Source: Escherichia coli
Lineage (GTDB): Bacteria > Pseudomonadota > Gammaproteobacteria > Enterobacterales > Enterobacteriaceae
Assembly: GCF_003334385.1 (NCBI RefSeq)
Contig: NZ_QOWN01000004.1
Direction: 5' to 3' (one strand)
Length of the DNA: 64,000 nt
Shown: piece after piece, positions 25,809-34,582 of the stretch
Layout of the letters: each line of letters starts with the position of its first letter
How positions within the stretch are numbered: position 1 is the stretch's first letter
Program-made: the position numbers and the translations under genes
The notes under the pieces: model-generated
The model's database searches: none
What the model was told of the DNA's origin: nothing
The model's input: only the letters and a program-made list of their open reading frames with translations

Positions 25809-26084
25809 TCATGCATACAGTATCGCCTGTACGCGCCAGTTATCAGGCTGCTGGTCTTCGTACATGGTAATAATGCGGTACCATGACGCACCTTGTTCAT
25901 CGGCCTTTAACGCCACGATACGTTCCACGTCCTGCGGATCCCCTGAAATATTGCTAACTGAGATCTGACCTATTTCATTCAGGCCCGTCACGCAGTCAGC
26001 ACTGGCGAATTCTGCAGACTGTGCCGTGGCGCTCGCAGGATAAGTCACTAATTGCAGCGAGGGTGAGGCAAGTAATTGTTTCAT
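25809..26084 (-). CDS. yjfN: DUF1471 (YhcN/BhsA-like) periplasmic stress protein YjfN
   Basis: ORF track 25809..26111; start trimmed to MKQLLASPSL..., 91 aa. Confidence 0.85.
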   Translation of the reverse strand: MKQLLASPSLQLVTYPASATAQSAEFASADCVTGLNEIGQISVSNISGDPQDVERIVALKADEQGASWYRIITMYEDQQPDNWRVQAILYA

Positions 26085-26232
26085 CGTCAGCTCCATTTTT
26101 CGTTTCCCCACATGTTGCAGGGCATTCCATCGCGGTAATAAACGCCCAGGCTTCCAGCCGGTAATTTATTGTGCACAGGTAAACGCATAGGGACGCAAAG
26201 CAATGTAAAGCTGACTATGTAAGTTGTCTGAT

Positions 26233-26562
26233 TTATTTACGGTACAAAATGGCTTGTGAATACCACTGTCCTGTCACGATGGTTTCGTCCACCATGACGA
26301 CAACGTAATAATCAGCTTTTGCAGCGACAGCTTTCGCTTTGATTTCTGCTAATGCGTCATCCGGAGAACCCCGAACCATCGTGCTTACGCTACCTATTCG
26401 CTGTAACCCTTGCGTCTGGTCGCGGCGAATCTCTTGCGGATGGTCCGTTACTGGCGGTGCTGGCTGTGGCGTACCTTGCAGTGCGCTACAGGCACTTAAC
26501 ATCAACACCAATAATAAACTGGCAAACCGGTAAATAACGCTATTACGTTTCCTGCTAACCAT
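26233..26562 (-). CDS. bsmA: biofilm peroxide-resistance lipoprotein BsmA (YjfO)
   Basis: ORF track 26233..26661; start trimmed to MVSRKRNSVIYRF..., 109 aa; lipobox LSAC. Confidence 0.85.
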   Translation of the reverse strand: MVSRKRNSVIYRFASLLLVLMLSACSALQGTPQPAPPVTDHPQEIRRDQTQGLQRIGSVSTMVRGSPDDALAEIKAKAVAAKADYYVVVMVDETIVTGQWYSQAILYRK

Positions 26563-26743
26563 AGTGTAGTGCCTTATTAATTTAACTTTGGGGGAATGTT
26601 CCCGAATTGTTACCTGGTACGCGATTTTCGAATGAAAACGTGACGAAAGCGTAACCCACATCTCAACATTATGAACTAATACCGCCAGCAGAAACTTGTG
26701 CTAAGGATTTCTTCATGTCATACCAGACAAAAAGGAGAGACAG

Positions 26744-27493
26744 ATGATTGAAATAGAATCACGCGAGCTGGCAGATATTCCCGTTCTTCATGCTTATCCT
26801 GTCGGACAAAAAGATACCCCGTTACCGTGCGCGATTTTTTATCACGGCTTTACTTCGTCCAGTCTGGTGTATAGCTATTTTGCCGTTGCGCTGGCGCAGG
26901 CTGGTTTGCGGGTGATCATGCCGGATGCGCCCGATCACGGTAGTCGTTTTAGTGGCGACGCAGCGCGGCGGTTAAATCAATTCTGGCAAATCTTGCTACA
27001 AAGTATGCAGGAATTCACTACTTTACGTGCGGCAATAGCCGAAGAAAAGTGGCTGCTTGATGACCGTCTGGCAGTCGGTGGTGCGTCGATGGGCGCGATG
27101 ACGGCACTGGGGATTACCGCTCGCCACCCCACGGTGAGATGTACCGCCAGCATGATGGGATCGGGCTATTTTACATCGCTCGCCCGTTCACTGTTTCCAC
27201 CGCTGATACCTGAAACGGCAGCACAACAGAATGAATTCAATAACATTGTCGCGCCGCTGGCTGAGTGGGAAGCGACAAACCACCTGGAACAACTTGGTGA
27301 CAGACCTCTACTGCTGTGGCATGGCCTCGACGATGACGTTGTGCCTGCCGATGAATCACTACGTTTGCAGCAGGCCTTAAGCGAGACGGGACGGGATAAA
27401 CTGCTAACCTGTTCATGGCAGCCAGGCGTGCGTCACCGCATTACGCCTGAGGCGTTAGATGCTGCAGTGACATTTTTCCGCCAGCATCTTTAA
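26744..27493 (+). CDS. yjfP: alpha/beta-hydrolase esterase YjfP
   Basis: ORF track; 249 aa; GGASMG nucleophile elbow. Confidence 0.88.
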
Positions 27494-28245
27494 ACACGCA
27501 GAATGCTGACCCCTTGCGCTTCCAGTTGTTGCAGGATTTCCGGGTTAGCATTTTTGCCGGTGATCAGCATATCAATTTGATCGGCACGGCTAAAAAGCAT
27601 TCCCGCGCGTTCGCCAATCTTACTGCTATCAACCAGTACCACCAGTTTCCCTACCACGCTCAGCATCTTCTGCTCTGCCATTGCCGTCAGCATATCGGTT
27701 TTATACAACCCTTCTGCTGTCAGTCCTTTGCCGCTGGTAAACATCCAGTGCCCGGCATAGAGACTGTTTTCGCTGCCCTGCGGGCTTAAAGTGATGGACT
27801 GACTTTTGTTGTACTGTCCGCCCATAATGATCACGCTGTCATGTTCTTGATCGATCAGGTAATTTGCCAGCGGTAGATAATTAGTGATGATTTGCACTGG
27901 CTTGCCACACATTTCCCGCCCAAGCAGAAACGCGGTGGAGCCGCAGTTGATGACTACGCTTTCGCCCGGATTAACCAGCTGCGAGGCCGCTTTAGCGATA
28001 CGTACTTTTTCATCGTGATTCTGCGCCTGATGCAGATTCATCGGCGTCCAGCGCGGGCGCTGTTGGGTAATAGCTTCTGCGCCATTGCGCACTTTTTTCA
28101 GTTTGCCGCTTTCGTCAAGTTTATTGATATCGCGTCGCGCAGTGGCAGGCGAAATTCCCAGACGCTCAACGACTTTCTCAACGGTCACAAAGCCCAATTG
28201 TGCGAGCATTTCCAGGAGGATTTGATGTCTTTGTGCTTCAGTCAT
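27490..28245 (-). CDS. ulaR: DeoR-family transcriptional repressor of the ula regulon
   Basis: ORF track; 251 aa; N-terminal HTH. Confidence 0.92.
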
Positions 28246-28352
28246 GAGCTATTCCGATAAAATTTGATTTTTTTAGATGATATTTGAAATAGCCAGGAAA
28301 TACTACGCCGGATAGCGCGAACTACTCCACGCTATCCGGTATAAACGACAGA

Positions 28353-32628: not shown

Positions 32629-32637
32629 GGAGCGGAT

Positions 32638-33492
32638 ATGTTGTCCAAACAAATCCCGCTTGGCATCTATGAAAAAGCGCTCCCCGCCGGGGAGTGCTGG
32701 CTGGAACGCCTGCAACTGGCAAAAACGTTGGGCTTCGATTTTGTCGAGATGTCGGTAGATGAAACGGACGAGCGCCTGTCGCGCCTCGACTGGAGCCGCG
32801 AGCAGCGTCTGGCGCTGGTGAACGCGATTGTTGAAACCGGCGTGCGCGTGCCGTCCATGTGCCTTTCTGCTCATCGTCGTTTCCCGCTGGGCAGTGAAGA
32901 TGACGCGGTGCGGGCGCAGGGGCTGGAGATTATGCGTAAAGCTATCCAGTTCGCCCAGGATGTCGGTATTCGCGTGATCCAACTGGCGGGCTATGACGTT
33001 TACTATCAGGAAGCCAATAACGAAACGCGTCGTCGTTTCCGTGACGGCCTGAAAGAGAGCGTTGAGATGGCAAGCCGCGCGCAGGTGACGCTGGCGATGG
33101 AGATCATGGATTACCCATTGATGAACTCCATCAGCAAGGCGCTGGGCTACGCGCACTATCTCAACAACCCGTGGTTCCAGCTCTACCCGGATATCGGCAA
33201 CCTCTCGGCGTGGGACAACGACGTGCAGATGGAGTTGCAGGCCGGAATCGGGCATATCGTCGCGGTACATGTGAAAGACACCAAACCGGGCGTCTTCAAA
33301 AACGTGCCGTTTGGCGAAGGCGTGGTGGATTTCGAACGTTGTTTCGAAACGCTCAAACAGAGTGGCTATTGCGGGCCGTACCTGATTGAGATGTGGAGCG
33401 AAACGGCGGAAGACCCGGCGGCAGAAGTGGCGAAAGCGCGTGATTGGGTGAAAGCGCGCATGGCGAAAGCGGGCATGGTGGAGGCGGCATAA
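32638..33492 (+). CDS. ulaE: L-ribulose-5-phosphate 3-epimerase
   Basis: ORF track; 284 aa TIM-barrel epimerase. Confidence 0.92.
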
Positions 33493-34178
33493 TGCAAAAG
33501 CTAAAACAGCAGGTATTTGAAGCCAACATGGAGCTGCCGCGCTACGGGCTGGTGACCTTTACCTGGGGCAACGTCAGCGCTATCGACCGCGAACGCGGGC
33601 TGGTGGTGATCAAGCCCAGCGGCGTTGCCTACGAAACCATGAAAGCGGCCGATATGGTGGTGGTTGATATGAGCGGCAAGGTGGTGGAAGGGGAGTATCG
33701 CCCATCTTCCGACACCGCGACGCATCTCGAACTCTACCGTCGTTACCCGTCGCTTGGCGGCATTGTCCATACCCACTCCACTCATGCCACCGCATGGGCG
33801 CAGGCGGGGCTGGCGATCCCGGCGTTAGGCACCACGCACGCTGACTACTTCTTTGGTGATATCCCGTGCACGCGCGGATTAAGCGAAGAAGAGGTGCAGG
33901 GTGAGTACGAACTGAACACTGGCAAAGTGATTATCGAAACGCTGGGCAACGCCGAGCCGCTGCATACGCCGGGAATTGTGGTGTATCAGCACGGACCGTT
34001 CGCCTGGGGGAAAGATGCCCACGACGCGGTGCATAACGCGGTAGTGATGGAAGAAGTGGCGAAAATGGCGTGGATTGCGCGCAGTATTAATCCACAACTC
34101 AATCACATCGACAGCTTCCTGATGAATAAACACTTCATGCGTAAACACGGTCCTAACGCTTATTACGGGCAGAAGTAG
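33492..34178 (+). CDS. ulaF: L-ribulose-5-phosphate 4-epimerase
   Basis: ORF track 33444..34178; start trimmed to [12 protein letters not shown]..., 228 aa; start overlaps ulaE stop by 1 nt. Confidence 0.92.
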
Positions 34179-34240
34179 AACACGCGCTGCGGAAATTTCC
34201 TTCCTCGGGAGATAACTGGTCTAATTCCGCAGCCGTTTTT

Positions 34241-34267
34241 CAAAAAAAGCCCCCTGAGAAGGGGGCA
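34241..34267 (-). terminator. intrinsic terminator for yjfY (stem gccccct/agggggc, T7 run on minus strand)
   Basis: hairpin read in sequence with A7 on plus strand immediately 5' of it, i.e. a T-run 3' of the hairpin on the minus strand. Confidence 0.7.
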
Positions 34268-34306
34268 AAGCAAACTATGGCAATGTTTCTTTGGTTATAC
34301 CTGGTG

Positions 34307-34582
34307 CTAGCGATAAATATCCGCGCTGGCGTGCATATTGCCGTTACTCCCCGGTTCCCGCATCAGAATCACGTGGTAGTACGTTGCGCCCTGCGCATCT
34401 GTCTCTTCATTTAATGCCTGACGCGCTTCGCTTTCAGTGGCGAAATTATGATTGATATAAATCACGCCTAAGCTTTGCACATCGTCCATATTTCTGGCCT
34501 GGTGGTTATTAATTTCAATGGCTGCCCATGTATTTGCACTTAGCAAAAGCACAGCCAGAAGGGCTAAAACACGGCTGAACAT
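34307..34582 (-). CDS. yjfY: DUF1471 (YhcN/BhsA-like) periplasmic protein YjfY
   Basis: ORF track; 91 aa with signal peptide. Confidence 0.85.
   Translation of the reverse strand: MFSRVLALLAVLLLSANTWAAIEINNHQARNMDDVQSLGVIYINHNFATESEARQALNEETDAQGATYYHVILMREPGSNGNMHASADIYR

Follow-up and report, generated by a model that had tools for sequence, protein, structure and literature searches.

Three DUF1471 genes around yjfP and the ula genes

This study concerns yjfN, bsmA and yjfY, three small genes of the DUF1471 family in a 64,000-nucleotide stretch of Escherichia coli DNA (contig NZ_QOWN01000004.1, assembly GCF_003334385.1), referred to as the window. Open reading frames (ORFs) and RefSeq annotation placed these genes and the ones between them as follows.

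25809..26084, minus strand: yjfN, 91 aa (ORF and RefSeq, 'DUF1471 family protease activator YjfN')
26233..26562, minus strand: bsmA (yjfO), 109 aa (ORF and RefSeq; K-12 annotation 'putative lipoprotein BsmA')
26744..27493, plus strand: yjfP, esterase (ORF and RefSeq)
27490..34178, genes on both strands: ulaR-ulaG / ulaABCDEF ascorbate-utilisation block (RefSeq annotation)
34307..34582, minus strand: yjfY, 91 aa (ORF and RefSeq)

The positions, strand and lengths of the trio agree with the initial annotation of this DNA. In an identical strain annotated by RefSeq the order is aidB, yjfN(-), bsmA(-), yjfP(+), ulaR(-), ulaG(-), ulaABCDEF(+), yjfY(-), rpsF-priB-rpsR-rplI, with the three genes flanking yjfP and the ula genes, as had also been proposed. 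yjfN and bsmA are adjacent and co-oriented, 148 bp apart. Each of the three proteins is identical to its K-12 MG1655 counterpart. The 9.5 kb around the trio was 100% identical to several complete E. coli genomes and was matched in 5426 of 5426 complete genomes by megablast, and each gene was found in at least 5413 of them (>99.7%). Three of the ten E. coli DUF1471 genes lie within 8774 bp of the 4.64 Mb chromosome (simulated p = 0.0013), a clustering that is non-random. We concluded that yjfN, bsmA and yjfY are annotated core genes of E. coli and that the observation is real but ordinary.

In-frame ORFs extend upstream of yjfN to a GTG at 26111 and upstream of bsmA to an ATG at 26661. Both alternative starts were rejected, as the extensions are not open in Kosakonia or Pluralibacter gergoviae. 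The annotated starts are marked by conserved 'MELT' codons together with a GGAG Shine-Dalgarno sequence placed 6 nt ahead of the annotated ATG. Scans for sigma-70 promoters around the three genes gave no matches.

Family membership and pairwise similarity

All three proteins were matched over the full length of PF07338, a 55-residue model, which confirmed their assignment to DUF1471: YjfN at E = 3e-17 (model 1-54), BsmA at E = 1.2e-15 (model 1-55) and YjfY at E = 8.3e-20 (model 1-55). The NCBIfam equivalog model for BsmA, NF011433 (cut-off 100 bits), scored BsmA at 153.3, YjfN at 51.0 and YjfY at 31.9 bits; thus YjfN and YjfY are paralogues and not BsmA. With the YhcN equivalog model NF033776 (cut-off 125 bits) the scores were 51.8 for YjfN, 51.1 for YjfY and 27.5 for BsmA, so that none of them is YhcN, and YjfN and YjfY reached no NCBIfam subfamily cut-off. 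A profile search of 1.84 billion representative proteins, a library that carries no taxonomy, returned 509 family members at E <= 1e-3, and all loci that we examined have neighbours of Enterobacterales type (aidB, yjfP, the rpsF operon). The DUF1471 fold is alpha+beta and RcsF-like, with structures solved for SrfN, YahO and YdgH domains. In a sequence search against solved DUF1471 structures YjfY matched 2ma8 and 2jna (E about 5e-5), and no match was found for YjfN or BsmA. Eletsky et al. 2014 (PMC4092069) described roughly twelve subfamilies with ten E. coli paralogues and linked the family in general to stress and biofilm, in agreement with what the initial annotation had stated.

A common C-terminal pattern had been claimed for all three proteins. 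YjfN ends in NWRVQAILYA (…SWYRIITMYEDQQPDNWRVQAILYA) and BsmA in QWYSQAILYRK (…DYYVVVMVDETIVTGQWYSQAILYRK), and W…QAILY is indeed common to these two. YjfY ends in NMHASADIYR (…TYYHVILMREPGSNGNMHASADIYR); it has neither the Trp nor QAILY and displays only the family-wide A..IY[KR] ending, so that the pattern does not extend to it.

Identity among the three E. coli proteins was 21-31%, with 31% for YjfN-BsmA and 21% for YjfN-YjfY. An alignment of the three had been suggested as a check of their similarity. BLASTP aligned YjfN with BsmA (30% identity, E = 1e-6) and BsmA with YjfY (22% identity, E = 9e-4), but returned no alignment between YjfN and YjfY, despite the clear PF07338 membership of both. 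Pairwise BLASTP was therefore dropped as the sole test and was replaced by Smith-Waterman Z-scores against shuffles, profile-profile scores and trees, because it lacks the sensitivity needed for 70-residue proteins with only 20-30% identity.

yjfN and bsmA as a tandem pair

For the comparison of paralogues seven further K-12 members were added, namely rclB, yahO, ybiJ, mcbA, bhsA, ydgH and yhcN. Neighbour-joining (NJ) trees with bootstrap were calculated from 67 hidden Markov model columns and 156-160 domains, comprising the best 150 of the 509 family representatives together with orthologues from related loci. YjfN was the first-ranking paralogue of BsmA in the Smith-Waterman comparison (Z = 11.2), followed by YjfY (6.5), and profile-profile comparison with hhalign likewise placed BsmA closest to YjfN (about 91; 88-95). 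Orthologues, from Enterobacteriaceae and from more distant lineages, formed a clade of their own for YjfN (65-68% bootstrap), BsmA (89-90%) and YjfY (56-100%). YjfN and BsmA were sisters in the full-data trees with bootstrap values of 33% and 39%, and a grouping of YjfN with YhcN received 0%. NJ on 67 columns thus recovers the orthologue clades but not the deep order.

The tandem was also found next to aidB in more distant loci (L024 and L033, order bsmA-yjfN). The identity between its YjfN-like and BsmA-like members was 41% in L024, 36% in L033 and 32% in L029, compared with 31% in E. coli. The initial annotation had proposed local duplication and divergence for the whole trio. For yjfN and bsmA this proposal appears reasonably supported by YjfN being the best paralogue of BsmA, by the conserved tandem beside aidB and by the trees, in which the two make the best, though weakly supported, sister pair. 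The duplications are ancient and not recent.

Gene order and the ula cassette

A synteny scan anchored on YjfP, with one genome per species, returned 17 loci. The E. coli order was also present in Escherichia species, Citrobacter, Huaxiibacter and Enterobacter sp. EA-1. In Kosakonia and in Pluralibacter sp. UBA7423 the ula genes are absent from the junction and the order is yjfN-bsmA-yjfP-yjfY-rpsF. The three DUF1471 genes of Pluralibacter sp. UBA7423 occupy about 2 kb (L018 3193-5198). The same ula-less order was seen in K. cowanii and on the distant contig L029, and yjfP is the sole gene between the DUF1471 genes where the ula operon is absent from the site. On the distant Enterobacterales contigs AidB is 64-71% and RplI 87% identical to the E. 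coli proteins. L029 reads yjfY-like, yjfP, bsmA, yjfN, DUF350 gene, aidB, and its YjfY is 39% identical to that of E. coli. We concluded that the yjfN/bsmA tandem is old and that the compact three-gene arrangement exists far from Escherichia.

Since yjfY stands beside yjfP in ula-less genomes, the gap of 8 kb in E. coli is most likely secondary and due to the 6.6 kb ula cassette. A comparison of Enterobacter sp. EA-1 (L022 10772-17407) with Kosakonia oryzendophytica (L016) showed flanks that are 92-95% identical and a clean 6.6 kb indel of ulaRG-ulaA-F, the block in EA-1 beginning right after the yjfP stop. In the window yjfP and ulaR are convergent and share 4 bp at their 3' ends (27490-27493), so that the ula block has its left edge exactly where yjfP stops. 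Other genes were found at the same yjfP-yjfY junction: one major facilitator superfamily (MFS) transporter gene in K. oryzendophytica (L016 10834-12042) and a chaperone-usher fimbrial operon in P. gergoviae (L020 12668-19388). The junction, occupied by ula, the MFS gene or the fimbrial operon, is thus a site of variable cargo.

Five distant loci (L026-L028, L030 and L031) carry a single gene of the BsmA lipoprotein type, and in L026 the rpsF operon abuts yjfP. The single-copy loci L026, L030 and L031 were considered as a state preceding the duplication and were rejected as such, their products having lipobox and tether and being nested in the BsmA clade (89% bootstrap).

Some details of these loci were noted in passing. 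The EA-1 assembly contains many broken ORFs, probably frameshifts from sequencing errors. In K. cowanii (L015 10737-11066) the similarity to yjfY is lost after about residue 60 and the frame ends early, overlapping the end of yjfP; it is probably frameshifted or truncated. The DUF350 gene of L029 (2361-2759), between yjfN and aidB, belongs to the family of E. coli yjfL, which lies upstream of aidB in the group yjfK-yjfL-yjfM-yjfC.

Origin of yjfY

Two features of the proteins connect YjfY with its neighbours. An aromatic-Tyr motif is common to YjfN, BsmA and YjfY, and 17 residues separate the conserved Tyr from the conserved Ala in 12 of 12 YjfN, 18 of 19 BsmA and 8 of 8 YjfY sequences, and mostly so in the YdgH domains. 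The spacing is 14 residues in BhsA, McbA, YbiJ, YahO and RclB, and in 11 of 13 YhcN sequences. We regard the 17-residue class as suggestive only.

Possibly, if with some doubt, the whole trio goes back to a single local ancestor that was duplicated serially in place, with yjfY as the most diverged copy. The significant clustering in E. coli would be in line with this, as would the three-gene arrangement of about 2 kb in ula-less genomes including a distant lineage, the common loop class and aromatic-Tyr motif, and the YjfY-like protein of L029, which is 35% identical to the neighbouring YjfN as against 21% in E. coli. Local pairs also occur elsewhere in the family, as ybiJ and mcbA in K-12 or yhcN beside a ycfR-like gene in Salmonella (PMC4092069). 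However, a clade of the three genes received about 5% bootstrap and was not present in the full-data trees, YjfN and YjfY gave no BLASTP alignment, and the best profile matches of YjfY were spread over YhcN (56), YjfN (51) and BhsA (50), practically equidistant, with BsmA at 37.

A separate origin of yjfY, beyond family membership, would mean that the gene reached the rpsF operon independently and that its proximity is coincidental or due to a region permissive for insertion. The Smith-Waterman ranking of YjfY agrees with such an origin, since YdgH domain I (Z = 12.8), YhcN (11.4) and YdgH domains II and III stand above YjfN (9.2) and BsmA. YjfY joined YdgH in one NJ tree, the yjfP-yjfY junction takes varied cargo, and Intestinirhabdus and the L026-L028 lineage have no yjfY, yjfP there being directly next to rpsF. 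The grouping with YdgH reached only 3-6% bootstrap, however, and both the clustering and the loop class held in common with the neighbours speak against it. Furthermore, the neighbourhood yjfY-yjfP-bsmA-yjfN is kept even in a lineage whose YjfY shares only 39% identity with that of E. coli. We consider a separate origin rather unlikely.

By sequence affinity the local origin of yjfY proposed in the initial annotation is neither supported nor refuted. The adjacency in ula-less genomes and the 17-residue class make it plausible.

One further protein, P0100, is 35% identical to YjfY and was considered as an orthologue; it was rejected on account of its unrelated neighbourhood (L032). The ybiJ and mcbA genes lie 4.1 kb apart (L003 5666-10057) and flank ybiI-ybiX-fiu. 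Their products are close relatives (hhalign 117-119), and the pair is a parallel to the yjf cluster.

Export signals, C-termini and regulation

BsmA contains a lipobox, LSAC (Cys25), a Pro-rich tether, TPQPAPPV, and a DUF1471 domain ending in QAILYRK. The peak 8-residue Kyte-Doolittle mean of its signal core was 3.0. The lipobox L[SCA][AG]C was present in all BsmA orthologues read, distant ones included, and YjfN and YjfY have neither lipobox nor tether. Judged by the lipobox, BsmA is a lipoprotein. The RNA polymerase containing sigma-S binds and opens the bsmA promoter (PMC4447067), and a bsmA single mutant has phenotypes (Weber et al. 2010, as cited in PMC4783026). In Escherichia albertii NBRC 107761 (L010 9520-9912) bsmA is interrupted at codon 43, ahead of the DUF1471 domain, by an in-frame stop (…PPVTDHP*EIRRDQ…) and is apparently a pseudogene.

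YjfN has a weakly hydrophobic N-terminal signal region, a conserved AXA site and a conserved mature N-terminus, QSAEF. The peak 8-residue mean of the E. coli N-terminus (MKQLLASPSLQLVTYPASATA, followed by QSAEF; residues 1-21, window 26022-26084) was 0.9. It was 2.1-3.4 in the other nine E. coli paralogues and in YjfN of Citrobacter, Kosakonia, Huaxiibacter and distant lineages. The weak core was also seen in E. albertii (0.9), Intestinirhabdus and P. gergoviae. The literature treats YjfN as periplasmic. A C-terminal Ala (…AILYA) was found in all 14 of the intact Enterobacteriaceae YjfN orthologues read, the norm of the family being Tyr-Lys or Tyr-Arg; among the distant YjfN-like proteins, those of L024 and L033 end in R and a third one in L. 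According to PMC12096828 and bioRxiv 10.1101/2024.12.25.630354, which relate Kim et al. 2018, YjfN is a 'suicide activator' of DegP/DegQ whose hydrophobic C-terminal Ala engages DegP.

The gene yjfN is a member of the CpxR iModulon (PMC7657598), and one upstream box is a candidate for CpxR.

26195..26209, minus strand: putative CpxR site TTTACATTGCTTTGC (TTTACAYTGCTTTGC), about 110 nt upstream of the yjfN start (pattern match and alignment)

Read as an inverted site, in reverse complement, the box agrees with the CpxR consensus GTAAA-N5-GTAAA in 9 of 10 positions, and in the upstream alignment it was conserved in 10 of 11 genera. Matches to the consensus in the window were not enriched over shuffles (5 found vs 3.3 expected). 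The box was retained as a candidate because it is conserved across genera, and it fits the iModulon membership; CpxR may bind at this position.

YjfY has a canonical Sec signal peptide with predicted cleavage after TWA, a signal core peaking at 3.4 and a DUF1471 domain ending in ADIYR. Two elements were located next to its gene.

34249..34266, minus strand: likely intrinsic terminator directly 3' of yjfY, with a 7-bp stem, 6 GC pairs and a TTTTTTT tail (consensus scan)
34715..34730, plus strand: CRP-box sequence TGTGATGAACTTCAAA in the yjfY/rpsF intergenic region (exact sequence match)

A CRP site for yjfY/rpsF was reported from chromatin immunoprecipitation sequencing (ChIP-seq) in enterotoxigenic E. 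coli (ETEC) H10407 (PMC4287617). The term 'secreted', applied to all three proteins in the initial annotation, is too uniform: YjfY has a canonical signal peptide, BsmA is a lipobox lipoprotein and the hydrophobic core of E. coli YjfN is unusually weak.

Redundancy or specialisation

It had also been suggested that the three proteins could be functionally redundant, as stress and biofilm factors backing each other up. The common fold family, the envelope location and the general link to stress and biofilm (PMC4092069) are in favour of this suggestion. Single and double mutants of ydgH with yjfN, bsmA or yhcN displayed no compound growth defect (PMC11705850), a result in keeping with buffering. 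In opposition to this, the proteins are 21-31% identical, one is a lipoprotein and two are soluble, and their regulatory inputs according to the literature differ (sigma-S, Cpx and CRP). Only YjfN has the hydrophobic C-terminus, which it needs for its DegP activity (PMC12096828), and the bsmA single mutant already shows phenotypes (Weber et al. 2010, as cited in PMC4783026). The ratios of nonsynonymous to synonymous substitutions (dN/dS) of yjfN, bsmA and yjfY, compared with E. albertii and Citrobacter, were 0.05-0.15, i.e. each gene is under purifying selection and is retained across genera, and in E. coli each is present in nearly every complete genome. Redundancy of the three is unlikely and the copies are more probably specialised; mutual back-up of all three as stress and biofilm factors appears very improbable to us.

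Proposed history of the cluster

We consider it likely that yjfN, bsmA and yjfY are three anciently diverged and separately conserved genes within a family described as restricted to Enterobacterales, that the yjfN/bsmA pair arose by tandem duplication, that yjfY was displaced by ula and that the functions are specialised. The cluster would have started with a gene for a BsmA-type lipoprotein between aidB and yjfP. An old tandem duplication would then have given rise to yjfN, with loss of lipobox and tether and a soluble product. yjfY would originally have been located just across yjfP, beside the rpsF operon, in a three-gene cluster of about 2 kb. In the lineage of Escherichia and Citrobacter the 6.6 kb ula cassette at the yjfP-yjfY junction would have pushed yjfY about 8 kb off.

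The present roles may be described along the same lines, the links to DegP, sigma-S, Cpx and CRP being taken from the literature. BsmA would be a tethered lipoprotein with a promoter bound by sigma-S and with biofilm and stress phenotypes. YjfN would be a Cpx-associated periplasmic protein, whose derived C-terminal Ala engages DegP/DegQ, activates them and is followed by degradation of YjfN itself. YjfY would be a soluble DUF1471 protein of the periplasm, with a CRP site ahead of its gene.

Several points weigh against this history. Deep branches of the 67-column alignment are poorly resolved and YjfN with BsmA stays under 40% bootstrap. YjfN scores slightly higher to YhcN than to BsmA (Z of 17.0 vs 11.2, with YjfY next at 9.2; hhalign 99 vs 91). 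By score YjfY stands nearest to YhcN and the YdgH domains and not to its neighbours, and the three-gene clade is at about 5%. The 17- vs 14-residue spacing might be an ancestral state or might have evolved repeatedly. The single-copy loci fall inside the BsmA clade, which points to loss of yjfN or absence of data and not to a state preceding the duplication. Whether ula was gained or repeatedly lost is judged by parsimony from a small set of outgroups.

Tentatively, two further readings may be offered: the trio might be the remnant of a compact cluster around yjfP with a junction that recurrently takes up cargo, and the signal peptide of Escherichia YjfN might have lost most of its hydrophobic core. 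With such a weak core the export of the Cpx-linked DegP activator may be inefficient or conditional, and this, if true, could itself matter for envelope-stress signalling.

The genes and the family are already known, and so is the reading of the yjfN/bsmA adjacency as a trace of duplication: PMC4092069 describes the family and explicitly uses the yjfN/yjfO adjacency as evidence of expansion by gene duplication. The papers that we consulted made no mention of yjfY in a compact cluster split by ula, of the 17- vs 14-residue classes or of the weak signal peptide of Escherichia YjfN. The result matters little beyond a tidy annotation. It does add a picture of how the family may have grown, by old local duplication and subsequent divergence into a lipoprotein, a protease activator and a soluble protein, with the present 8 kb spacing in E. 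coli probably stemming from a sugar-utilisation cassette in a variable junction. It also draws attention to the oddly weak signal peptide of E. coli YjfN.

Other observations in the window

Compared with K-12 MG1655 (L034; window 24067-36349), aidB-yjfN-bsmA showed 2 differences in ~2.7 kb, with 0 in yjfN or bsmA. From yjfP (~26750) through ula, yjfY and rpsF the divergence rises to ~2-3%. The change is abrupt, falls between bsmA and yjfP and has the appearance of a recombination breakpoint. At about 25749-25784, between yjfN and aidB, there is an imperfect palindrome, GCCGGATGCGGCG...CGCCTTGTCCGGC, that resembles a repetitive extragenic palindromic (REP) element. Downstream of rplI, at 36461-37432 and beyond, the window encodes a substrate-binding protein of a tripartite ATP-independent periplasmic (TRAP) transporter and a large permease, as annotated in strain VR50.

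Comparison with known systems

The trio resembles the PF07338 family as described in PMC4092069 in being single-domain proteins of about 90-110 aa that end in the A..(I/L)Y motif and begin with an export signal, a weak one in the case of E. coli YjfN. The BsmA of the window is identical to the K-12 protein, the biofilm, stress and motility protein of Weber et al. 2010 (NF011433). YhcN is by score the closest non-neighbouring relative of YjfN and YjfY, and the YdgH domains have the 17-residue loop class, as does the trio. Both YhcN and YdgH differ from the trio in being encoded at other loci, and YdgH unites three domains in one polypeptide. As for the DegP activator, the YjfN of the window does not differ from the K-12 protein and has the hydrophobic Ala at its end, whereas BsmA ends in RK and YjfY in R; thus neither of the latter carries the feature reported as needed for DegP activation.

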